Positions 3,816 through 44,761 of a stretch of DNA of 64,000 nucleotides are shown piece by piece. Location of the stretch: contig OW818685.1 in NCBI GenBank assembly GCA_942493245.1, positions 3,452,389-3,516,388 on the forward strand, read 5' to 3'. Source of the DNA: an uncultured Candidatus Sumerlaeota bacterium (GTDB taxonomy: Bacteria; Sumerlaeota; Sumerlaeia; UBA8349). Made by a program: the position numbers and the translations under genes. How positions within the stretch are numbered: position 1 is the stretch's first letter; every line of letters starts with the position of its first letter. The notes beneath the pieces were generated by a model. That model worked only from the letters and a program-made list of their open reading frames with translations, was not told the origin of the DNA and searched no databases.

Positions 3816-5975
3816 CTATTTCCCCGTCTTAAACTCGATCCCCAACTGGCTGAAGATGAAGGCGTACTCGTCCACGGCCATGTCGATCCGCGCCGCGAGC
3901 GGCGAACCCATGCCGTGGCCGGTGTCATTGCTCGTGCGAAGCAGAATGGGCGCTTTCGATGACGTGGCCGCCTGCATCCGGGCCGTCATTTTGCGCGACT
4001 GCATCGGCTGGACGCGCGGGTCGTTGGCCCCGGTCATGAACAACGTCGCCGGATAGGGCGTGCCCTCCTTCACATGGTGGTAGGGCGAATACGCGTACAG
4101 GGCGTCAAACTGAGCCTTGTCCTTCACCGTCCCGTACTCGGGGATGTTGAAACTGCCATTGGGGGACAGTTCCACTCGCAGCATGTCGTAAATCCCCACA
4201 CTCGACACCACCACCCGCATCGCGCCGGGGTGCTGCGTGAGCATCGCGCCCATCAGGAGCCCGCCGTTGCTGCCTCCCTCGATGGCCAACCGGTCAGCTG
4301 AGGTGTAACCTTCTTTCACCAGAAACTGCATCGCGGCGGCAAAATCGTCGAACACGTTCTGCTTGTTCGTCAGGTTTCCCTGTTTGTGCCACTCCTCGCC
4401 ATACTCGCCGCCGCCGCGTATGTTGGCCTGCGCGAAAATAATCCCCTGGTCCAACAGAACCCGCCGCATGGAGGAAAACTTCGGCTCCATGCTCGTTCCG
4501 AACCCACCGTAACCCGTCAGGAAACAGGGATTCTTTCCGTCCAACCGGGCGCCCTTCGGCAGCACGATATTGACCGGGATTTTCGTCCCATCCTTGGACA
4601 CCGCAAACTCGCGCCGCACTTCGGCGTCGCTCAAGTCCACCGGCGTCGTGCTCCCCAGGGCGGTCTTCACGGTCTTATTGGTCTTGCCATCGAATCGGTA
4701 GAACGTGTTGGGCGTCGTGTAGGAGACGGCGGAGAACGCCACCTCGTCGCCTCCGAGGGGAGCCAGCCCCCCCAGCGAGGCCACGGCCGGTTGCTCCGGC
4801 GCCTGGAGCGGCTTACCATCGAGGTCGAACACGCGAATCTGCGAGGGTCCACCCAACTGATAAACCACAAAGAGGCGCGACGCAGTCACGACCAGCGTCG
4901 GCGGATCGTTGTAGAAACTCGTCAGAATAGTGTCCTGAGATTCGGGGACAATCGTCTTCGCCTCGCTGAGTTTCCCGTCGCGTACCGGCATTCGAAGAAT
5001 CTTGCCCCTGGGGGCGCCCTGCACGGAAATCAGGAACAATGTCCCCTCGGGACCAAACGTCGCCTGGACTGCCTTGTCCTCGAATCGGCTGATCTGCCGC
5101 CACTCGCCCTCGGGCGACCGAAGGTAGAACGCGAACTCGCCGCCGTCGCCATTCTGAACCGTCGCCAGCAGGTAGCCGGTCTGGGGGTTCATCTCGACTT
5201 CGATCTCGCCAATGCGCGGCAGGTCGCGCCCCATCTCATAGCGATCCTGCTCGGCGGGCGTGCCGAACTTATGAAAATACAACTGCATGTAGAAATCCAT
5301 ATCCTCGGGCTTGCGCTCGGTTCCCCGGGGGTACCGGGTGAAGAACAGCCCCTGTCCATCCGCCGCGAAGGCCACATCGCCCCCGGCGGTCCCGCCATTC
5401 ACGCGCGGGATCACCTCATGGACCTGCGTCCCCGTGGCGGTGTCGAAAATCCAGATGTCCCCGCTTTCCGTCCCCTTTTTAGAAAGGGAGACCGCCACCA
5501 ACTTCCCGTCGTGCGACGGGACGTACCAGTCGATCGTCGTGGAACCCGAGGGATCGAGGACGTTGGGGTCCACCAGCGCGCGCTCGGCGCCCGAGGCGTC
5601 CAGAGCCGTCCGGGCCACGAGGAAGGCCTGTTGTTTCGGCGGCTCGCTCTTGACGGCCAGAAACACCCCGCCCCGGTGCGACACGTCGCCGTATCCCACC
5701 GTTTTGGCCGACATGATCTCCGTGATGCGCTTGCGGATGGCCTCGACGTTCGGCAGATTGTCGAGCGCCGACCGGGCGTGGGCGTTCTGCGCCTCGCTCC
5801 AGGCGCGCACCTCGGTATTTTCCCAATCCTCCAGCCAACGGTAATCGTCCGCCACCGCCACGCCGTGATACGTGTCCGTCACCGGTTTTTTCGCGGTTTC
5901 GGGCGCCGCGGCGCTCCCCCACCCCGCCACGGCCAGCCACCCCATCGTCAAAAACACTCCCATCTTCCGTCCCAT
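3816..5975 (-). CDS. prolyl oligopeptidase (peptidase S9A family), secreted
   Basis: 719 aa with signal peptide, N-terminal beta-propeller region and a C-terminal alpha/beta hydrolase domain carrying the serine-nucleophile motif GGSNGGLL. The stop lies 22 bp upstream of the GH30 start, so the two are probably co-transcribed. Confidence 0.85.
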   Translation of the reverse strand: MGRKMGVFLTMGWLAVAGWGSAAAPETAKKPVTDTYHGVAVADDYRWLEDWENTEVRAWSEAQNAHARSALDNLPNVEAIRKRITEIMSAKTVGYGDVSHRGGVFLAVKSEPPKQQAFLVARTALDASGAERALVDPNVLDPSGSTTIDWYVPSHDGKLVAVSLSKKGTESGDIWIFDTATGTQVHEVIPRVNGGTAGGDVAFAADGQGLFFTRYPRGTERKPEDMDFYMQLYFHKFGTPAEQDRYEMGRDLPRIGEIEVEMNPQTGYLLATVQNGDGGEFAFYLRSPEGEWRQISRFEDKAVQATFGPEGTLFLISVQGAPRGKILRMPVRDGKLSEAKTIVPESQDTILTSFYNDPPTLVVTASRLFVVYQLGGPSQIRVFDLDGKPLQAPEQPAVASLGGLAPLGGDEVAFSAVSYTTPNTFYRFDGKTNKTVKTALGSTTPVDLSDAEVRREFAVSKDGTKIPVNIVLPKGARLDGKNPCFLTGYGGFGTSMEPKFSSMRRVLLDQGIIFAQANIRGGGEYGEEWHKQGNLTNKQNVFDDFAAAMQFLVKEGYTSADRLAIEGGSNGGLLMGAMLTQHPGAMRVVVSSVGIYDMLRVELSPNGSFNIPEYGTVKDKAQFDALYAYSPYHHVKEGTPYPATLFMTGANDPRVQPMQSRKMTARMQAATSSKAPILLRTSNDTGHGMGSPLAARIDMAVDEYAFIFSQLGIEFKTGK

Positions 5976-6243
5976 CGTGCCGCCCTCCTTCTATTGCCTG
6001 GACTTGCAGCCCTTCCAATTGCTTTCGGACCCGAATTGTACCGGTCCCGGAGGGTTTCAGACAAGTCAATAATCCGATATTGTGCGCCGGTATCCCCTCG
6101 CCACCCAATGGTTCTTAATCCTGTTGTTTCTTTGCTTGACATATCGAGTCCCCTATCTCAATATACCAGAATAGTATAGGTCGTTCCTATTGCCTCCGAA
6201 ATTTTTTCCAACCATCCGAAACAACGAGAAACGAATCATAACA

Positions 6244-9200
6244 ATGGACTCCCAACAAGACGGCATGGCGATAGCGCACGAACTGATCCGCGAAGCGAAA
6301 AAAACCCACGCCCTCTTTCTGGACCTGGGAAACCTCGGATTGACAGAACTCCCCCGTGAACTGGAAGAACTCGTCTGGCTGGAAGGGCTGAATCTGTCTG
6401 TGCTCTTTCGTGACATCGTTCATATGAAATTGGTGGTATCCATAAACGAGTATAGTCCAAATCGGATCAAGTGTCTACCATCATGGATCAGAAAACTCCA
6501 ATGCCTGCGTCACCTATTCCTAACAGATTTAGAGAAACTCAATAATATGGAGGAACTTCAAAGTCTTGAGGTGCTCAGTTTAACTGATTGCAATGATTTG
6601 ACCAATGTTGACAATCTGCAAGATCTAATCCGCCTTCAAGCACTGGACTTAAGCCGCTGTTCGTGTCTAACTAATGTAGACGGACTACAAAAACTAAATG
6701 GACTCAAAGTATTGGACCTATCTGTTTGTTCAAAATTAAAAAGTATCAATTGCTTGCAAAAAATGAACAAACTTCAAGTCCTAAACTTGGATGGTTGTTG
6801 GAGTTTGGAAAATATCTCTTGTCAGCCACAACCATCCCAACTTCGGTTACTAAATGCAAGAGGATGCTGCAACCTGCCCCATATTAACATTCTGCAGGGA
6901 TTGAACCACCTTCAGACGCTGGACTTAAGTGGGTGCGGGAACCTAGCCCAAGTCAATGTGCAGGGGCTGAGGGAACTTCAGTCACTATATTTAAGCGGGT
7001 GTGAGAATCTGACACAGATCAGAGGCCTGCAGGGGTTGAACCACCTTCAGACGCTGGACTTAGGTGGGTGCGAAAACATAGCCCGAGTCAACGTGCAAGG
7101 GCTTAGACAACTTCAGTCGCTGAGATTAAGAAGGTGTCTAAGCCTGAGCCTGGTCAATATACAAGGACTGAACAAACTCCGATCACTGGACCTATGTGCC
7201 TGTACTAGTTTGACCTCTCTCCCAGATTCTGTACTATATATGCCCCAATTAGAGGAACTTTTTCTTTGTGAAAGTAGTATCTATGACATTCCCCGCCCCT
7301 TGCTTGGTCGCGATTACTATGAAAATTGTCTACCGGGTATTCGGGCGCATTTCCACGATCTGGAACAGGGGGAAGAGCTGGACCGGGAGGTCAAACTGAT
7401 CCTGCTGGGGAATGGGTGGGTGGGGAAGACGTCGGTGTGCCGCCGGTTGATCGAGAACCGGTTTGACAAACATGAAAAATCCACCCACGGCGTGCGGTTC
7501 TGGCCGTGGCGTCTGAAGGAAAAGGAGGGCGAGGAACGCGCCATCACGGTCAATGTGTGGGATTTCGGCGGGCAGGACATTTATTACGGGACGCACGCGT
7601 TGTTTCACCAGGGCCGCGCCGTCTTTGTGATTGTGTGGGACGCGGAAACGGAAGGAACCGACTTCACACAAGATGAAGAGACCCAACTGACCCACCGGAA
7701 CTACCCGGTCCAGTACTGGCTCGACTACGTCCAGTCGGTCTCTCCCGGCAGCCCGGTCGTGATCGTTCAGAACAAATGCGCCTCGGATTTCGACTACCGC
7801 GCCGTCTCACTCACGATCAAAAATTCGAGTCAACACCCTCTGCAATGCCGGTTTTGCGCTGAGGAAGCGGACGATGCCCGAAACAACCGCCAACTCCTCG
7901 TGCATTACCTGGAAGAGGCGGTCGAGAAAGTCCTGGGGCACAAAGGCACCCAACGGATTGGTGTGGGTCGCTGGGGGGTGAAACAGGAACTGCGCCGGTT
8001 GTTGAACGAGGAAAAGACGCAAACCCTTTCGATCGAACGGTATCGTAAAATCTGCAGGGACCACCACCTCGACAAGGCGGGCGCCGACGCGCTGCTCGAG
8101 TTTCTGCACCACAGCGGAACCGTTTATCACCAGGCAAACCTGTTTGACAACGCGATCATCCTCGACCTGCGCTGGGTGTGCGACGCCATTTACACCCTGC
8201 TGGACCGGCACAAAGGGTGTTATCACGATATTCGGGAAAGAAACGGTCAATTCACCGGAAACCTCCTGAACCGGCTGGTCTGGCGCGAGGCGGGTTACCA
8301 ACTGTCCGAACAGGATCTGTTTATCGAAATGATGCAGTCGTGTAAAATCTGTTTCAAGTTAGGTGAAAATGATCGCAAGGAAGCCGTCTATCTGGCGCCG
8401 GATCTGACGCCCAACTACACAGACGTCGCGGGGGGATGTTATTGGGAGGAAAAAGGCGAAACATTCTACTGGCGCTATGATCACGGCTTTCTGGGTCCGA
8501 ACGTCCTCCGGCAGGCAATGATCGAAATCGGCAAAACGTATCGGCAATCGGCCTGTTACTGGCAGAACGGCTTTTACCTGCCGCTCAATGCCCTCCAGAG
8601 CCGCGCCCGCGTCACTGCGGAATACGGCCAGAACGGCAACCCGTCCCCCGGGCACATCACCCTGGCCATTCAGGGCGCAGGCAATCCCCAGAACAAGATG
8701 GAAATGCTGGGCATCCTGCGGAACGCCTTTGAAGAAGACCGTCGGTATCGGTGGCGCGAAAGTAATCGCAAAGATTGGGGGTTGGAACAAAAAAAGACCG
8801 GCATCCGGTATCAGGTTTCCCTGGATGGGGAGCACTGGGTGGATCTGGAAGCGTTGAAAACCATGCGCGACCTCGGGAACCCCCATGTGGCCTCTTTCGG
8901 GGACAACGACGCCCCACCCGTTCAACAGGAAGTCGCCGATTACCTCCATTACCTCGACCATCTGGACACCCCGTCCCGGTTCGACGGGGAGACACCCCGT
9001 CCACTCCCCCTCGCAAAAAACCAAGACACCTTGACTCCCATTACAGACGAAAAGGAAACGAAACCCATGAGCCCAGCCAATCCCCCGAAGGTTTTTATCA
9101 GTTACAGTCATGAAACCGCAGAACACGATGAACGTATCCGCAAATTGGCGGATCAGTTGTGTGAAAAGGATGGGATTGAGGTAGAACTCGACCAGTACCA

Positions 9201-9594
9201 TCAACGACCGTCCCAGGGATGGCCACGCTGGTGTGAGGAACAACTGGAACCGGAGAATTCAGACTTTGTCCTGGTCATCTGTACGCAAACCTACCTCGAT
9301 CGAATAAAAGGTAAAGTTCGAGCCGACGAAGGACACGGGGTCTATTGGGAAGGGTCTCTTCTCTACGATTACATCTATGATTCGAAAAGCAATACTCGTT
9401 TCATTCCGGTTCTGTTGAAAGGGGGAAAAGAAGACCATATTCCGCGCCCGATAAAAAGTTCCGGATGGTACAAGATTGAAAAGTTCGATCTTTCGGATCC
9501 GGGTTATAACGCGCTTTATGGGGTCCTGACCAATCAACCGGAGGTCAAAAAACCTCCCAGAGGCACGATTAAACGTCTTCCCGCGAAACCATGA
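6244..9594 (+). CDS. ROCO-family multidomain protein: cysteine-containing LRR - Roc GTPase - COR - C-terminal SEFIR/TIR-like domain
   Basis: ATG at 6244 (the ORF track opens at a TTG at 6190, in frame). About 14 LRRs of the LxxLxLSGCxNL type (nt about 6300-7250). Roc GTPase with G1 GNGWVGKTS (nt 7390 onward), G3 DFGGQ and G4 NKCASD. A COR-like region of about 350 aa follows. The C-terminal domain (nt 9085-9510) begins PKVFISYSHETAEHDERIRKLADQL and contains NTRFIPVLLKGGKEDHIP, which closely resembles SEFIR domains (compare Act1 RKVFITYSMD ... FRFIPVLFPNAKKEHVP). Confidence 0.85.
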   Translation: MDSQQDGMAIAHELIREAKKTHALFLDLGNLGLTELPRELEELVWLEGLNLSVLFRDIVHMKLVVSINEYSPNRIKCLPSWIRKLQCLRHLFLTDLEKLNNMEELQSLEVLSLTDCNDLTNVDNLQDLIRLQALDLSRCSCLTNVDGLQKLNGLKVLDLSVCSKLKSINCLQKMNKLQVLNLDGCWSLENISCQPQPSQLRLLNARGCCNLPHINILQGLNHLQTLDLSGCGNLAQVNVQGLRELQSLYLSGCENLTQIRGLQGLNHLQTLDLGGCENIARVNVQGLRQLQSLRLRRCLSLSLVNIQGLNKLRSLDLCACTSLTSLPDSVLYMPQLEELFLCESSIYDIPRPLLGRDYYENCLPGIRAHFHDLEQGEELDREVKLILLGNGWVGKTSVCRRLIENRFDKHEKSTHGVRFWPWRLKEKEGEERAITVNVWDFGGQDIYYGTHALFHQGRAVFVIVWDAETEGTDFTQDEETQLTHRNYPVQYWLDYVQSVSPGSPVVIVQNKCASDFDYRAVSLTIKNSSQHPLQCRFCAEEADDARNNRQLLVHYLEEAVEKVLGHKGTQRIGVGRWGVKQELRRLLNEEKTQTLSIERYRKICRDHHLDKAGADALLEFLHHSGTVYHQANLFDNAIILDLRWVCDAIYTLLDRHKGCYHDIRERNGQFTGNLLNRLVWREAGYQLSEQDLFIEMMQSCKICFKLGENDRKEAVYLAPDLTPNYTDVAGGCYWEEKGETFYWRYDHGFLGPNVLRQAMIEIGKTYRQSACYWQNGFYLPLNALQSRARVTAEYGQNGNPSPGHITLAIQGAGNPQNKMEMLGILRNAFEEDRRYRWRESNRKDWGLEQKKTGIRYQVSLDGEHWVDLEALKTMRDLGNPHVASFGDNDAPPVQQEVADYLHYLDHLDTPSRFDGETPRPLPLAKNQDTLTPITDEKETKPMSPANPPKVFISYSHETAEHDERIRKLADQLCEKDGIEVELDQYHQRPSQGWPRWCEEQLEPENSDFVLVICTQTYLDRIKGKVRADEGHGVYWEGSLLYDYIYDSKSNTRFIPVLLKGGKEDHIPRPIKSSGWYKIEKFDLSDPGYNALYGVLTNQPEVKKPPRGTIKRLPAKP
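6897..7130 (+). repeat. intragenic tandem duplication of a two-LRR unit (about 135 bp, two copies)
   Basis: GGATTGAACCACCTTCAGACGCTGGACTTAAGTGGGTGCGGGAACCTAGCCCAAGTCAATGTGCAGGGGCTGAGGGAACTTCAG... from about 6899 recurs at about 7034 with roughly 85% identity by eye. Confidence 0.6.
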
Positions 9595-9610
9595 CTTCTG
9601 CCCTGGAACT

Positions 9611-9650
9611 CAGCGGTTCGGGGGCTTCCGTTCCCCCCGAGCCGCTGTAT
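9611..9650 (+). terminator. putative GC-rich hairpin terminator downstream of the ROCO gene
   Basis: Inverted repeat CAGCGGTTCGGGGG / CCCCCGAGCCGCTG with a 9-nt loop, 17 bp after the stop; the following T-tract is weak. Confidence 0.35.
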
Positions 9651-9798
9651 GCACCTACACTTTTTCCCGGCCTCCCCTCCTTCCCCCATTGCATTCCCTT
9701 TCCAGCTTTGATAAGGTAAAGTGTGATCTTGGGAAGAAGGGGAATGCGAGCATTCCCATCCCCAGATTCGGGATTCGGTATCAGGAGAATGTACCAGC

Positions 9799-11232: not shown

Positions 11233-11606
11233 AGCCGGGGGTAACAGCGCCTATTTTCATGAATTCGGGGGAAGGATGCGACCCGGCGGCGGGCGTGATC
11301 CTTCAGGTTTCTGTCGCCCCTCCGGGGCTTGATCTTATTTTTTCGTTCTGTTCCGGGGGTTCCCTTCGGTCACCCCCGGCTGGCTTACAAGCCTGCGAAG
11401 CACCTGACCTTCGCCCCCTCCGGGGGCTGAAAACCTGATAATTTGATCTCTTCCAATCCTTCAAACGTGAAGATGAAGAATCAAGGGCGGCGCGCTTGGG
11501 GTCAATAAAGCCTTGGCTTGCGGGGCGAAGGTGACTACAATGCCCCCTTGTGCGCTTGGAAAAGCCGCATGGGTTCAGTCCTCTTCACGTTGCAGACAGC
11601 AGCCTC

Positions 11607-39466: not shown

Positions 39467-41335
39467 TTATCCTTTTCCCATCAACTGTTTGTAGAGGAAA
39501 TAACCCGCGGCCAGAATAATCAGAACCACAATGGCGAGTTTGCCGGCCTTACCCGGATCGGCGCTCTCTTTTACCTCCGCTTTCGTGGAACCTTTCTCCG
39601 CGGTCTTCGAGGCTGTTCTGGCGCCTCCCAACCGGGCACGGTTCTCTCCCGCAGGGTCGAATTTGGCGCGCAGTTCCTCCAACACATGCGCCACGGGGGG
39701 ATCGAGTGAGACTTCGTGCGCTTTCTGCTCAAATGACTCGTAGGCCTTCCGAGTGTTCATAATTTGAAGCGCTTTGGCCGCAGCCACACGCACGTTCTTA
39801 TCCGGATCATGCTCGACGGTCTTTAACAGGAGGGGGATGAGAGGCTCAGCCGCCTCCCCACTGCGCCCGATGCCATGCAGCGCCACACTGCGCACCACGG
39901 TGTCTCCCACTTCCACGCATTTCTGCAATTTGGGCAAGGCCGACCGCAATCCCAGTTCACTCAGGATCACAACCGCCACCTGCAACAAGGGGCGGGGACA
40001 GGTTTCCACCTCGATCTGTTTGCACACTTTCCCGCGATCCAGTTTGAGCAACTCGCGCATCATGTACCGGAACATTTCTTCGTCCGTCTCGATGGAACCG
40101 ACCGAAAGGAGCGGATTCACCCCCAGCATGTCCACATGCTTCACCATCCAGTCGATCGCCAGGCGTTTCACACGGCTGTCCACCTGCGCTTCATAGAGAC
40201 TCAGGATTCCGGGGACATCGCTTTGAGCAAAAAGCGACTTGAAAGCGGCCGTCGCCTGAGAGGGATTCGAGAACGATTGGCGCCGCATCGGGGACACATC
40301 CGCCGTGGAGTGCGGCGCTTCGATCACCACTCCAGACTCTTGAATCTCCGATCCTTCCACAGGAGAACTCTCGTCCGAAACGATTTCCAAGCCCGGAATC
40401 AGATCCTCCATCCCCGGTTCGAGAATGAAAACGGGCTCATCGGCCGGGACAGGGGCAGACTTCGGAGTGTCCGGCGGTCTCTCCTGACGGACATCAGACA
40501 TGGCCACCGGACTGTCTCCCATCGAGAAAACCCGCGCCTCGGGCAACTCGACCCCATCCAGTCCGGAAAAGTCGAGGGTGGAAACAGGCGCCTCCAGTTT
40601 GACTGGCGTCAGTGGAGCGGACACCGGAACCGGTTCCGGTTGAGGCAATTCCAGATCGTCGAACGACATTTCGGGAATCGGAACACTTTCGACACTCAAT
40701 GCTTCCGGTTCCACGGGTTTTTCAGCACCCGCAGCTGGACCGGACCGAGGCTTTTCATCCAGGCGCACGTCGAGCAACTCGATTCCATCGAACTGAGACA
40801 AATCGGACTGCCGTTCTGGCACTTTCGGTTCAGGCGCCGACTTTACGCCGGAGACAGAACGAGCGGGCAGGGTCACCAGATCATCGAGAGAAAGTTCGGG
40901 AATTGGCACGCTGTCTGCCGGGTTAAAACTCGGCGATTCCTCGGGTGTGGCAACAGCAGGAACAAGGACTTCTCCTGAGAATCCGGGCGTTTCACCCGAT
41001 TCAGACAATTGCATTTCGGGCAAATCGAGACCATCGAGCATGTCGAGCCGGACCTCGGACGCGCTCGGTTTCACGTCCTCAGGGGTCGGTTCCGGCTGAG
41101 GCGCCCGCGTCTCACCCAGATCCTTGAGGAGTTCCTCGAACGAAAATTCGGAAAATGAAATATCGGTGAATTCTTCCTCCGCCACGGTCTTCGGTTCTTC
41201 GGCTGCAGGCTTGTCGGATGAAGGCGACAGATCATCCAGTGACATTTCGGGAATCGGAATTCCCTCCAGATCAAACGGCTGCCCCGGCTTCGAATCCGGA
41301 TTCTGTTGAGAAGGAGTCTTTTCCGGCTGTTTCAT
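39467..41335 (-). CDS. HEAT-repeat protein with an acidic repeat-rich N-terminus and a C-terminal membrane anchor
   Basis: Repeated (I/V)PIPE(M/L)S(L/F)DDL motifs, HEAT/PBS-lyase-like repeats (..NVRVAAAKALQ..) and a terminal hydrophobic helix (LAIVVLIILAAGYFLY). Confidence 0.6.
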   Translation of the reverse strand: MKQPEKTPSQQNPDSKPGQPFDLEGIPIPEMSLDDLSPSSDKPAAEEPKTVAEEEFTDISFSEFSFEELLKDLGETRAPQPEPTPEDVKPSASEVRLDMLDGLDLPEMQLSESGETPGFSGEVLVPAVATPEESPSFNPADSVPIPELSLDDLVTLPARSVSGVKSAPEPKVPERQSDLSQFDGIELLDVRLDEKPRSGPAAGAEKPVEPEALSVESVPIPEMSFDDLELPQPEPVPVSAPLTPVKLEAPVSTLDFSGLDGVELPEARVFSMGDSPVAMSDVRQERPPDTPKSAPVPADEPVFILEPGMEDLIPGLEIVSDESSPVEGSEIQESGVVIEAPHSTADVSPMRRQSFSNPSQATAAFKSLFAQSDVPGILSLYEAQVDSRVKRLAIDWMVKHVDMLGVNPLLSVGSIETDEEMFRYMMRELLKLDRGKVCKQIEVETCPRPLLQVAVVILSELGLRSALPKLQKCVEVGDTVVRSVALHGIGRSGEAAEPLIPLLLKTVEHDPDKNVRVAAAKALQIMNTRKAYESFEQKAHEVSLDPPVAHVLEELRAKFDPAGENRARLGGARTASKTAEKGSTKAEVKESADPGKAGKLAIVVLIILAAGYFLYKQLMGKG

Positions 41336-41508
41336 CGTCTATTCCACGCCCATTCTGTTTGAAATTTCGGTTCCTGCGGATATTCCGCAATCGTTCCCCG
41401 ACAAAGATACAGCTACGGGAAAAACCCCGTGGAGTAAAGCGCTATTTCTGTTCTTCCGCGGTTCTTGAGACCCCCTTGATTCACCACCCAATTCTCGCTG
41501 TTTTTCGG

Positions 41509-44496
41509 TCACGGCTTGTAACGCCCTTTCAGGAACCGTCCGGTGTGCGACTCGGGGATCTCCATGATGCGGGCCGGGGGGCCCTCGGCGACAATCCGCC
41601 CTCCCGCGTCCCCCCCTTCCGGTCCCAGGTCCACCACCCAGTCGGCGTGGGCGATGAGATCCAGGTTGTGCTCGACGACCAGAATCGAGACACCCCCGTC
41701 CACCAGCGCATGGAACAATTGGACCAGCCGGTCGAGGTCCGACGGGTGCAGACCCGTCGTCGGCTCGTCGAAGATCATCAGGTACTCGCCCCCGTTGACC
41801 TCTTCGCGCGGCGCGCGGTCGGAGCGTCCCGTGGCGGCATGGTAGGAAACGCGGCGCAGAATCGAACGATTCGCCGCGAGAAATCCCGCCAGTTTCAACC
41901 GTTGCGCCTCCCCGCCCGACAGGGTGGCCGTACTCTGTCCCAATCGCAAATACCCCAACCCCACCAGTTCCAAGGGTTCCAGTTCGCGGACGATTTTCGG
42001 TTCCGAGGCGAAAAACTCGCGGGCCTCCTGAACCGTCAAGTCGAGAACCGCGTCTATGTTCTTTCTTTGCCACTCGATCGCCAACACCCGGCGCTGGAAA
42101 CGCTTCCCATCGCAATCGTCGCAGGTCACCTCGACATCCGCGAGGAAGTGCATGTCCAGCGTCACCACCCCGGCGCCCTGACAGGTTTCGCACCGTCCCC
42201 CTTCCACGTTGAAGGAGAAATCGCCCGGTTTGATCCCCGCGTGGCGCGCCTCGCGCGTCGAGGCAAACAGCGTGCGGATCGAGTCGTAGGCCTTGATATA
42301 GGTAATCGGATTGCTGCGCGCCGACCGCCCGATCGGCTTCTGGTCCACCATGAGGATATCTTCGAGCGCTTCAATCCCCTCGAGGCGGTCGTAAGCGCCC
42401 ACATCCACCGCCGCATTGTCGCGCAGGCGGCGGAACCCGGAGAACAACGTGGACGTGACCAACGTGGACTTTCCGGAACCCGAGACGCCCGTCACGCAAC
42501 ACAACACGCCGCGCGGAATCCGGACGTCGAGGTTTTTCAGGTTGTGTTCGCGCGCGCCCCGCACCGTGATCCACCCCGTGGGTTTGCGTCCCCGCGAGGG
42601 AAGCGATTGCCCCACGCAAGACGCCAGATAACGGGCCGTGACCGACCCCGGACATTGGGCCAGCCCTTCGAGCGAACCGGCATAGAGAAGATTTCCCCCA
42701 TACTCCCCCGCCGCCGGACCGATATCGAGAATATCGTCCGCGCCCAGAATCACATCCGGGTCGTGCTCGACCACCACAACCGTGTTTCCACTCTCGCGCA
42801 GGGCCTGCAGGATCTGAAGCAGGCGGAACGTGTCGCGGCTGTGCAGGCCCACGGTGGGTTCGTCGAGCACATAGAGCGTCTCGGTGAGGCTGGACCCGAG
42901 GGCGGTGGCCAGGTTGATGCGCTGGGACTCCCCTCCGGAAAGCGTGCGGGTCTGCCGCGCAAGCGTCAAGTATCCCAACCCGACGGAGTCCAGGTAGTGC
43001 AACCGCGCGCGAATTTCCTGGAGGAGCCGGTCGGCGGCTTTTTCCTCGTAGGGCGGCAGGCGCAAGAGATCGAAGTATTCGTGCAGTTCGGCGATGGAAC
43101 ACGCGCTGACCTCGGCAATGTTGCGCTTGTCCACGCGCACATCGAGCGCATCGGACACCAGACGGGCGCCGTGGCAGTCGAGACAGGTCTCGTAAGCGCG
43201 GTATCGGGCCAGAAGAACACGGGCCTGGATCTTGTAACGACGCCCCTCGAGCCACTCGAAAAACCCCAGAACCCCGCACCATTCCCCCCGAATGGGGCGT
43301 TCCTCGCGGTTGCCGTTGAGGAAAATGCGGCGCTCGCGCTCGGTGAACTTCGCGAGGGGTTTGTCCAGCGGCAGTTCCGGCGCGGTCTGGCGCAGGTAGT
43401 CGTACATCTCGTGGTTGACCGGGGAGTTCCAGACCACCACCGGCTCTTCCCGCAGGGTGAGGTTCCAGTTGGGAATCGCCTTGTCGAGATCAATCCCGGT
43501 TGTGCGCCCGAACCCCTGACAGGTGGGACAGGCGCCCAATGGGCTGGAAAAGGAGAAAAGCGCGGGTTCAGGCTTGCGGAACAGGCGCCCGCAATGATCG
43601 CATCGCAGGTCGGACGAAAAAATCCAATCGGCCCCGCTGTCGGCGTCGCGCACACGGGCGCGCCCGCCTCCCGCACGGAAAGCCAGTTCCAGCGCCTCGG
43701 CCAGGCGTCCCCGCGTCTCCGGCTTCAACACCACGCGGTCCACCACCAGGAGAATCAGAGCGGCGGACGGCGGTTCAGCGGGACGGCGTTTGGAGCGTTT
43801 CCCGGATGGCGCCTCGGGTTCCGAAATCTGATTCGGAGCCGCGTCGGGCGCCAGACAGGAGGTATCGAAAACATCGAGGTCCACGACCTCGCCCCGGTCG
43901 GTCAGAGCGCGCGTGAACCCCTGACGACGCATGTCCTCGAGGATGGCGTTCAGCGCCTCTTTTTCCCCGGGATTGGTCACCCGCACCGGCGCGACAATCA
44001 ACAGCCGCTTGCCGTCGGGGAGTTTTTCGAGCGTGGCGGCGGCGCTCTGCGGCGTGTCGGACCGGACCTCGCAGTCGCAGTCGCGGCAGTGGACGTGTCC
44101 CACCCGCGCAAAGAGGAGACGCAGGTAGTCGTTGATCTCGGTGGCGGTACCGATGGTCGAGCGGGCGTTGGTAACGGAGTTCTTCTGCTCGAGCGCAATG
44201 GCAGGCGGGATGTTGTGGATGGAATCCACGTCGGGGCGCTGGATTTTTTCGAGAAACTGCCGCGCATAGGTGGACATGGAAGCGATATAGCGGCGCTGCC
44301 CCTCGGCATAGAGGGTATCGAAGGCAAACGAAGACTTGCCGGAACCGGAAACCCCGGTCACGACAGTGAGCTTGCCCAGGCGCACCTGACAGGAAATCCC
44401 CTTGAGGTTATGGGTCCGGGCGCCGACCACTTCGATGCTTTTCGCAACTTCGGGTCTTTCTGAAATTGTCCCTGACTCTTCTCGCTTTCTGGCCAT
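41509..44496 (-). CDS. uvrA: excinuclease ABC subunit A (UvrA family)
   Basis: Two ABC modules, GARTHNLKGI...VVTGVSGSGKSS...YAEGQRRY and a second GAREHNLKNL...VTGVSGSGKST, with zinc-finger insertions and LSGGE signatures. Start at internal ATG 44496. Confidence 0.85.
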   Translation of the reverse strand: MARKREESGTISERPEVAKSIEVVGARTHNLKGISCQVRLGKLTVVTGVSGSGKSSFAFDTLYAEGQRRYIASMSTYARQFLEKIQRPDVDSIHNIPPAIALEQKNSVTNARSTIGTATEINDYLRLLFARVGHVHCRDCDCEVRSDTPQSAAATLEKLPDGKRLLIVAPVRVTNPGEKEALNAILEDMRRQGFTRALTDRGEVVDLDVFDTSCLAPDAAPNQISEPEAPSGKRSKRRPAEPPSAALILLVVDRVVLKPETRGRLAEALELAFRAGGGRARVRDADSGADWIFSSDLRCDHCGRLFRKPEPALFSFSSPLGACPTCQGFGRTTGIDLDKAIPNWNLTLREEPVVVWNSPVNHEMYDYLRQTAPELPLDKPLAKFTERERRIFLNGNREERPIRGEWCGVLGFFEWLEGRRYKIQARVLLARYRAYETCLDCHGARLVSDALDVRVDKRNIAEVSACSIAELHEYFDLLRLPPYEEKAADRLLQEIRARLHYLDSVGLGYLTLARQTRTLSGGESQRINLATALGSSLTETLYVLDEPTVGLHSRDTFRLLQILQALRESGNTVVVVEHDPDVILGADDILDIGPAAGEYGGNLLYAGSLEGLAQCPGSVTARYLASCVGQSLPSRGRKPTGWITVRGAREHNLKNLDVRIPRGVLCCVTGVSGSGKSTLVTSTLFSGFRRLRDNAAVDVGAYDRLEGIEALEDILMVDQKPIGRSARSNPITYIKAYDSIRTLFASTREARHAGIKPGDFSFNVEGGRCETCQGAGVVTLDMHFLADVEVTCDDCDGKRFQRRVLAIEWQRKNIDAVLDLTVQEAREFFASEPKIVRELEPLELVGLGYLRLGQSTATLSGGEAQRLKLAGFLAANRSILRRVSYHAATGRSDRAPREEVNGGEYLMIFDEPTTGLHPSDLDRLVQLFHALVDGGVSILVVEHNLDLIAHADWVVDLGPEGGDAGGRIVAEGPPARIMEIPESHTGRFLKGRYKP

Positions 44497-44761
44497 CTCT
44501 TCCAATCTCGAATTCAGGTCTCTGTACTCTCCCACACTTGAGGGAATTCTACCGTACTTCCCGGAAATGGGCTATTCCAATTCACGCGGCATTCGGCGAT
44601 TTCTCTGGCAACACGGCGGGTTCTGAACTATGACATATAGAGAGACGGGGGAAAACCGGGGGACACGGATGTAACGTGTGGGGGGCCACAGTTCCCGCGG
44701 TCAGAACATTCGTTTCGCGGTGGGGACACCGGCGTTACACAAAAGAAGGGTGGTAAAAAGC

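Follow-up and report, generated by a model that had tools for sequence, protein, structure and literature searches.

The window analysed here is a 64,000-nt stretch of contig OW818685.1 from an uncultured Candidatus Sumerlaeota bacterium. Near its left end, one gene encodes a protein that joins, from N to C terminus, cysteine-containing leucine-rich repeats (LRRs), a Roc domain, COR-A, COR-B, a disordered linker of about 40 residues and a SEFIR domain. Roc leads directly into COR-A and COR-B, the tandem by which ROCO proteins are recognized. The protein is a rare SEFIR-bearing variant of an already catalogued class of LRR-Roc-COR-effector proteins, not a new kind of system, and very probably belongs to the conflict-system class. 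On balance we favor the reading that it is a horizontally acquired, single-gene member of that class with a bSEFIR-type effector in place of TIR_2, whose likeliest role is that of a GTPase-gated NADase sensor acting through abortive infection.

Reading frame, domains and predicted fold

A single uninterrupted reading frame runs from 6190 to 9594 on the plus strand (stop codon at 9592-9594), opening with a TTG at 6190; its first ATG, at 6244, gives a product of 1116 amino acids (aa). We take this ATG as the start because the N-terminal helix is conserved with the closest full-length relative, P0002; the N terminus reads ELIREAKKTHALFLDLGNLGL in this protein and ELIRQAKETHATTLDLSMLGL in P0002. 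Residues are numbered from this ATG throughout. An earlier note on this DNA, made from the sequence alone, had given residues 966-1134 for the C-terminal domain; that range was counted from the TTG and is therefore 18 residues higher than ours.

The public protein collection holds the gene only as a 784-aa call (P0001), starting at Met333 and lacking the LRRs. This short call could be an artifact of the gene caller in the low-GC LRR region, or it could mark an internal start that yields an LRR-less isoform. A sigma-70-like hexamer pair (TTGACC, 16 nt, TACTAT) occupies 7210-7237 and ends 3 bp upstream of the Met333 ATG at 7240. Promoter-like matches are not in excess, with four found against a shuffled mean of 2.9. 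A split gene or pseudogene, considered on account of the 784-aa call, was ruled out by the continuous frame and the conserved N terminus.

Profile searches, which the earlier note had proposed as a check on its call of LRR, Roc, COR and SEFIR domains, bear that call out. The Pfam matches to Roc (E-value 5.6e-25, residues 384-512), COR-A (2e-25, residues 579-721) and COR-B (7e-8, residues 739-884) all exceed curated cut-offs; COR-B is the dimerization half of COR in solved ROCO proteins. Pfam Ras also matches the Roc region (4.7e-13), and several Pfam LRR families lie over residues 40-350 with E-values down to 1e-15. At the C terminus Pfam SEFIR (1.4e-13, 51.8 bits against a cut-off of 23) overlaps TIR_2 (PF13676; 1.1e-12, 48.9 bits) and scores above it, and the PADLOC bSEFIR model matches residues 940-1109 at 6.2e-46, so the naming of this domain as SEFIR holds. 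Neither NACHT, NB-ARC nor any other STAND NTPase was matched in Pfam, NCBIfam or PADLOC. The switch is Ras-like, in agreement with the proposal that an NLR-type logic is here built on Roc-COR rather than on NACHT or NB-ARC.

The motifs quoted in the earlier note are all present in the translation. In the Roc domain they are GNGWVGKTS (389-397), STHGV (413-417), DFGGQ (440-444) and QNKCASD (509-515), and in the C-terminal part PKVFISYSHE (948-957) and RFIPVLL (1052-1058). The LRR array is presumed to be the sensor. Direct-repeat family D2 spans the same stretch as a tandem duplication of two LRRs within it. The coordinates of all features are collected in Table 1.

A full-length AlphaFold2 model (mean predicted local distance difference test, pLDDT, 81.6; predicted template modelling score 0.72) is confident through the LRRs, Roc and COR, with pLDDT above 90 in the N-terminal helix and LRR region. 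In Foldseek this model finds the LRR-Roc-COR structure of CtRoco best (6hlu_A, E-value 1.6e-30), then LRRK1 and LRRK2 (about 1e-21). Sequence matches in the PDB comprise CtRoco (6hlu and 8r4b, 1e-28), Methanosarcina Roco2 (MbRoco2) and the Roc domain of LRRK2, and for the tail the Bacillus cereus SEFIR (BcSEFIR; 5y8e, 9e-12) and the human Act1 SEFIR (3e-7). The SEFIR domain was modelled with a pLDDT of 83.6. The nine highest Foldseek ranks go to Act1, BcSEFIR, IL-17RA and further chains of the 9ot1 assembly; the SPARTA TIR and ordinary TIRs come after these SEFIRs, and the IL-17RB SEFIR (3vbc) ranks 19th. The structural comparison suggested in the earlier note thus puts the SEFIR fold ahead of TIRs.

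Table 1. Features of the insertion and of the gene it carries (window positions)
Feature	Position	Strand	Evidence or remark
Insertion of 3,586 bp holding the ROCO-SEFIR gene alone	6085..9670		Absent from contig L089 of a close relative
A+T-rich 5′ region in the insertion, presumed promoter/leader	6085..6243	+	Inside the inserted block; TTGACA at about 6137
Coding sequence of the LRR-Roc-COR-SEFIR protein, 1116 aa, stop included	6244..9594	+	Open reading frame and AlphaFold2 model
N-terminal helix and about 13 cysteine-containing LRRs of 22-24 residues each (residues 1-355)	6244..7308	+	Pfam LRR_4, LRR_8 and LRR_5; register LxxLxLxxC; beta strands in model
Tandem duplication, 135-nt unit equal to two LRRs	6892..7137	+	Tandem Repeats Finder: period 135, 1.8 copies, 84% matches
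Roc domain (residues 381-560)	7384..7923	+	Pfam Roc and Ras; alignment of 45 homologues; matches to CtRoco, MbRoco2 and LRRK2 Roc
COR-A (residues 561-730)	7924..8433	+	Pfam COR-A
COR-B (residues 731-905)	8434..8958	+	Pfam COR-B; model confident here
Disordered linker between COR-B and effector (residues 909-945)	8968..9078	+	pLDDT below 50 in full-length model
SEFIR domain, C-terminal (residues 946-1116)	9079..9591	+	Pfam SEFIR and TIR_2; PADLOC bSEFIR; 5y8e alignment; model and Foldseek
Codon for Glu1036 in GVYWEG, candidate catalytic residue	9349..9351	+	SEFIR alignment; models; BcSEFIR alignment

The Roc switch and the SEFIR effector

The G1 motif (GNGWVGKTS), G2 (STHG, 413-416) and G3 (DFGGQ) of the Roc domain are intact, while G4 is QNKCA (509-513) and lacks its aspartate. 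The subfamily consensus for G4 is Q[ST][QKR]CD, and the position of the aspartate, which normally specifies guanine, is taken by Ala513 (QNKCASD is encoded at window positions 7768-7788). The letters NKCASD that the earlier note quoted as G4 are therefore there, but a canonical G4 is not. Of the 45 aligned homologues 41 keep the aspartate, whereas this protein and the three nearest to it have Ala, Ala, Leu and Glu. Judged from sequence, the loss lowers confidence in a classical GTP-specific switch and would leave membership in the ROCO family untouched.

The same substitution could belong to a decaying or inactive acquisition, with a degenerating GTPase that no longer serves as a regulated switch, or with only the LRR-less product from Met333 being made. 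The 784-aa public call, the hexamer pair before the ATG at 7240 and the foreign composition of the gene (below) agree with this. Against it, the 3.35-kb frame is uninterrupted, the confidently modelled N-terminal helix and LRRs are conserved with P0002, G1-G3 are intact, and promoter-like matches stay close to their shuffled mean. Moreover, four proteins that have diverged to 54-61% identity in Roc have all lost the G4 aspartate, a pattern better explained by a state that is tolerated or functional than by recent decay. We hold decay to be distinctly improbable.

The SEFIR domain retains every invariant residue of the bacterial family in an alignment of 26 sequences, including Glu1036 and Asp983 (LDQY), each found in 26 of 26. 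TIR NADases have a catalytic glutamate, to which Glu1036 would be equivalent. In our models Glu1036 stands at the N-terminal end of a long helix (1033-1045) that follows strand C, and it aligns with a glutamate in BcSEFIR and with a histidine in the human adaptor Act1, which is not an enzyme. By analogy we regard it as a candidate NADase catalytic residue. Glu1029 (ADEG), which a MAFFT alignment of mixed TIR_2 and SEFIR tails had set against the catalytic glutamate of TIR_2, was dropped; Glu1036 (WEG) is preferred because of its invariance among SEFIRs alone, its place at the helix start and its alignment with the BcSEFIR glutamate.

Outside ROCO proteins, this domain is 58-59% identical to the N-terminal SEFIRs of proteins with a bSEFIR-type layout. 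The same SEFIR clade heads NACHT-HEAT, NB-ARC-TPR and AAA_16 proteins and also follows a caspase-kinase-FGE module, so from these architectures it would seem to behave as a portable effector of NLR-like sensors. The bSEFIR of Bacillus sp. NIO-1130 protects B. subtilis from phage phi29 (bioRxiv 10.1101/2022.05.11.491447), and bSEFIR reportedly uses its SEFIR domain to deplete NAD+ (Osterman et al., preprint, bioRxiv 10.1101/2024.02.11.579819). At three loci with the closest SEFIR relatives (L002, L003 and L004, on ENA ERZ250395xx contigs) the SEFIR proteins are called at 160-260 aa and an unannotated open reading frame follows each. Housekeeping genes on these contigs are also split, for example thymidylate synthase in two pieces, and the assemblies seem rich in frameshifts; the ‘stand-alone’ SEFIRs there are therefore probably fragments of longer bSEFIR-like genes.

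A SEFIR need not be an enzyme, and the protein might instead be a signalling scaffold, its SEFIR acting as a homotypic adaptor that recruits a SEFIR or TIR partner, or making a signalling nucleotide, in physiological or developmental regulation. Animal SEFIRs signal by SEFIR-SEFIR assembly, and the best fold match of our domain is the Act1/IL-17R helical assembly 9ot1. BcSEFIR has been interpreted as an interaction module, and the D40A mutation of bSEFIR was chosen as an interface mutant (bioRxiv 10.1101/2022.05.11.491447); Kaur et al. describe an adaptor (EAD) logic in related systems, and ROCO reviews list no prokaryotic function. We nevertheless think a scaffold role unlikely, for Glu1036, a histidine in Act1, is invariant in the bacterial clade, bSEFIR itself is reported to deplete NAD+, and the isolated insertion brings no partner along. 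Nor does the 64-kb window contain another gene with a SEFIR, TIR or Roc domain, paralogous or otherwise.

Relatives, module exchange and the insertion site

A full-length search returned 1059 relatives, the best 120 of which are almost all LRR + Roc + COR-A + TIR_2 proteins; the SEFIR family appears in two of these 120, the self-match and P0002. A scan of one genome per species, in a set that lacks the source genome, gave 409 relatives, in Planctomycetota, Nitrospira, Acidobacteriota, Alpha-, Beta- and Gammaproteobacteria, Bacteroidota, Verrucomicrobiota and others. For 78 of these 409 loci the last 330 codons were translated and scanned against Pfam, and the ends proved to be TIR_2 (68), CHAT (two) and a ‘GT4-conflict’ glycosyltransferase (one), with no SEFIR. 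With TIR_2 at 68 of 78 ends, fusion of a ROCO protein to a TIR-superfamily domain is the norm of the subfamily and the SEFIR form is rare. No other protein with COR-B and SEFIR occurred among the best 150 of a representative-library search, which also missed a P0002-like representative and so provides no frequency.

This class has been described before. Kaur, Burroughs, Iyer & Aravind (eLife 2021, PMC8195603) predicted that prokaryotic proteins with LRRs, an AP-GTPase (equivalent to Roc) and COR are counter-invader systems. In their account the N-terminal LRRs evolve rapidly, and the C-terminal position is taken by one of at least 24 domains, TIR, caspase, trypsin, FGS, GT4 and adaptors among them. 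Their source data hold about 567 mentions of ‘AP-GTPase+COR+TIR’ (e.g. Npun_F6039); SEFIR is absent from the main text and occurs in the supplements only inside the NCBI names of entries labelled TIR. A 2019 ROCO review gives all identified prokaryotic ROCO proteins the LRR-RocCOR arrangement only and lists no known prokaryotic function; as only that arrangement was recognized there, ROCO proteins with effector domains are not discussed. The earlier note had called the protein a candidate novel immune sensor. Its sensor-switch-effector logic is the best-supported reading, but the novelty was overstated, given the 68 TIR_2 ends and the class of Kaur et al. Its author was not aware of a characterized ROCO-SEFIR defense protein, and our literature searches likewise found none. 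Nor did we find an earlier report of a bSEFIR-type effector on a ROCO chassis, of sensor and effector being exchanged separately, of a G4 aspartate missing from a group of close relatives or of the empty-site comparison.

Identity between this protein and its sister P0002 falls from 61% in Roc to 52% in COR-A, 40% in both COR-B and the LRRs, and 38.6% in SEFIR. The P0002 SEFIR is 52-58% identical to a different set of non-ROCO proteins, and because each SEFIR is closer to its own non-ROCO set, the two sister ROCO proteins carry SEFIRs of different subclades. Of the four closest ROCO proteins, the present one carries a SEFIR of subclade A and P0002 a SEFIR of subclade B; P0004 has an ordinary TIR_2 in this place, and P0003, encoded in a Sumerlaeia metagenome-assembled genome, a non-TIR helical tail. 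Effector displacement on a conserved chassis, a mark of the conflict class, is thus seen both in this four-member clade and in the 78 loci, and the SEFIR has been swapped in as a module, in place of the usual TIR_2, on a conserved Roc-COR chassis.

Composition agrees with module exchange. G+C at third codon positions (GC3) is 0.47 in the LRRs and 0.485 in SEFIR, against 0.70-0.76 in Roc-COR and 0.78-0.83 in neighboring genes. The LRRs are compositionally foreign, as the earlier note had it, but SEFIR is equally odd and the whole gene is an insertion. Rapid diversification of the LRRs may be reflected in their 40% identity to P0002 against 61% for Roc, in the two-repeat duplication and in their distinct GC3.

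The LRRs also bring up a secreted effector directed at a eukaryotic host, similar to XopL, internalins or TIR virulence factors, whose SEFIR would disturb host IL-17 or TIR signalling. The LRRs have weak NCBIfam matches to XopL, XopAE, XopAC and internalins, many homologues are auto-annotated ‘internalin A’, and bacterial TIR and SEFIR proteins have been discussed as host mimics (Wu et al. 2012, as cited in bioRxiv 10.1101/2022.05.11.491447). However, the N terminus (MDSQQDGMAIAHELIREAKK), read from the sequence, is hydrophilic and has neither signal peptide nor transmembrane segment; relatives occur in free-living Planctomycetota, Nitrospira, Acidobacteriota, Alphaproteobacteria and Bacteroidota; and a switch built on a cytosolic GTPase would be out of place in a toxin that is translocated. 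We give this explanation hardly any credence. An identity as LRR virulence effector or internalin was rejected in its own right, since the NCBIfam scores reach at most 66 bits where the curated cut-offs lie at 450-1600, and they mirror no more than the periodicity of LRRs.

The insertion was delimited with a metagenomic contig of a close relative, L089, that is collinear with the window (pyrG, GSIII, a transmembrane protein, a radical-SAM gene, panD and the S9 peptidase). Its flanks are 86-89% identical to the window in nucleotide sequence, PyrG is 95% and the S9 peptidase 93% identical. Homology ends at window position 6084 and picks up again at 9671, the two points being about 286 bp apart in L089, so that 6085-9670 is either an insertion here or a deletion in the relative. 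Two further contigs of relatives, L087 and L088, end 180 bp past pyrG and are uninformative on the site. The CTP synthase encoded in the window shares 78% identity with a Candidatus Sumerlaeota protein and 64-67% with others from this phylum (BRC1), in line with the origin of the DNA. The insert has a G+C content of 0.518, its flanks 0.62 and 0.59. A consensus promoter scan made no plus-strand call in 6085-6243, and a promoter in this A+T-rich leader is inferred only. Part of the 286-bp filler (990-1163 of the L089 reverse complement) has a 73% identical counterpart at 11298-11491 of the window, a G+C-rich stretch between the radical-SAM and TM7S3-like genes; with one copy in the window, it may be a small dispersed intergenic repeat.

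Upstream lies a divergent S9 prolyl oligopeptidase gene (3816-5975, minus strand), and downstream are panD and then a radical-SAM gene. That the gene stands alone between housekeeping genes, as the earlier note observed, is confirmed and is further backed by the empty site. The IS3-type element which that note placed about 4.7 kb away is indeed 4.75 kb upstream, on the minus strand, with orfA (HTH_Tnp_1) at 1203-1493 and orfB (rve integrase core) at 323-1180; being outside the insertion, it is not obviously tied to the acquisition of the gene. Elsewhere in the window two antisense reading frames of about 1000 aa each overlap (41218-44463, plus strand, and 41509-44535, minus strand); the plus-strand product (1081 aa) has no Pfam match.

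The survey of homologue neighborhoods that the earlier note had proposed yielded no clear defense island. P0002, like the gene in the window, is surrounded by housekeeping genes, and the settings of the others are mixed: P0044 adjoins an SNF2 helicase, P0034 lies near an MmeI_C fragment and a WYL regulator, and P0005 has an integrase/relaxase pair on one side and a group II intron on the other. P0044 shares its contig with P0045, both being relatives from another organism. COR-domain genes are found on plasmids of Haliscomenobacter, Nostoc and Acaryochloris, and SEFIR genes on plasmids and prophages. An S9 prolyl oligopeptidase gene also lies 1.7 kb from P0034, an LRR-Roc-COR-TIR homologue in an unrelated genome (L085, 15383-17533), which is probably coincidence because the peptidase is conserved backbone in the empty-site relative. 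Neighborhoods and the presence/absence pattern together fit an accessory, mobile gene and fall short of a defense-island association.

Proposed function and comparison with known systems

In the reading we favor, the LRR solenoid would recognize an invader-derived ligand, most likely a phage protein, and ligand binding would shift the nucleotide state of Roc-COR together with its COR-mediated monomer/dimer or oligomer state. This change would release or cluster the SEFIR domains on their flexible linkers of about 40 residues; clustered SEFIRs would hydrolyze NAD+ by means of Glu1036, and the infected cell would arrest or die before the phage cycle is completed, that is, by abortive infection. 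Our observations extend to the domain layout with its folds, the G1-G3 motifs in intact form, a glutamate invariant among bacterial SEFIRs, the effector replacement and the presence/absence among close relatives; the ligand, the direction of the switch, the NADase activity and the phage-defense phenotype are proposed by analogy with bSEFIR, TIR NADases and the biochemistry of CtRoco and LRRK2.

Several points weigh against this reading. Animal SEFIR domains are non-enzymatic adaptors. Bacterial SEFIRs were, according to work cited in bioRxiv 10.1101/2022.05.11.491447, first proposed as general interaction modules. The match to the PADLOC bSEFIR model spans only profile positions 33-194 of 412, which is the SEFIR part of that model, and nothing in PADLOC matches the LRR-Roc-COR part, here or in five homologues. 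With the G4 aspartate lost, Roc may bind nucleotide weakly or with altered specificity. The host, moreover, belongs to an uncultivated lineage. A defense-island context was not found at the window locus or at P0002, P0034, P0005 and P0044, which are few neighborhoods with no statistical baseline. Literature searches for an experimentally tested ROCO protein in phage defense returned only the predictions of the Aravind laboratory and unrelated papers.

A bolder proposal, which we put forward tentatively and as somewhat short of an even chance, is that bacterial NLR-like antiviral sensors have, besides STAND modules, a second class of switch in Roc-COR. This protein would then be a naturally minimal case, its switch directly licensing a bSEFIR-type NADase, and the G4 without aspartate, common to a small clade, could read a non-GTP nucleotide, or the nucleotide pool, as a danger signal.

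Prokaryotic ROCO proteins serve as structural models for LRRK2, the Parkinson's disease kinase, and to our knowledge their own biological role is not known. If a ROCO protein with NADase output were real, loss of NAD+ or growth arrest would be a simple readout of the LRR ligand and of Roc-COR control over the C-terminal output, and so an enzymatic readout for the physiological role of prokaryotic LRRK2 homologues; a Ras-like GTPase chassis would also join the bacterial NLR-like immune sensors, among which STAND ATPases have predominated until now. This significance holds for the whole LRR-Roc-COR-TIR class, with its hundreds of members, and not specifically for this gene. The particular value of the present gene is in an effector with an experimentally validated relative (bSEFIR), a clean empty site and the separate exchange of sensor and effector.

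Four kinds of known system invite comparison. With the class of Kaur et al. (PMC8195603, Fig. 6D), itself a computational prediction, the protein shares N-terminal LRRs, Roc, COR and a variable C-terminal effector in one polypeptide, and effector displacement is reproduced here; it differs in that its effector is a SEFIR of the bSEFIR clade rather than TIR_2 and its Roc lacks the G4 aspartate. With bSEFIR (Millman et al. 2022; PADLOC PDLC03957) it shares a homologous SEFIR that has Asp983 and Glu1036, and both are single-gene systems. In bSEFIR, however, the SEFIR is N-terminal and precedes a C-terminal part of its own, whereas here it is C-terminal behind about 900 residues of LRR-Roc-COR. 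The sensor and switch parts are unrelated, so that the protein shares the effector domain of bSEFIR and is not a member of that system.

Likeness to CtRoco of Chlorobium tepidum and to LRRK1, LRRK2 and DAPK1 extends over the LRR-Roc-COR core, in sequence and in fold. CtRoco alternates between a dimeric form and a monomer with GTP bound (2019 ROCO review). LRRK2 also has an output domain after COR, a kinase where our protein has SEFIR, and the G4 aspartate missing here sets the protein apart from CtRoco and the LRRK proteins. Finally, STAND/NLR sensors (Avs, bNACHT, and plant TIR-NLRs such as Roq1) have the same combination of repeat sensor, NTPase switch and death effector; the LRRs resemble Roq1 and RPS2-like proteins at the profile level, and the SEFIR clade is shared with NACHT-HEAT and NB-ARC-TPR proteins. 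But the switch here is a Ras-like Roc with COR instead of a STAND AAA+ module, and the effector is C-terminal with the sensor N-terminal, which makes the protein an analogue of these sensors and not a member of their family.

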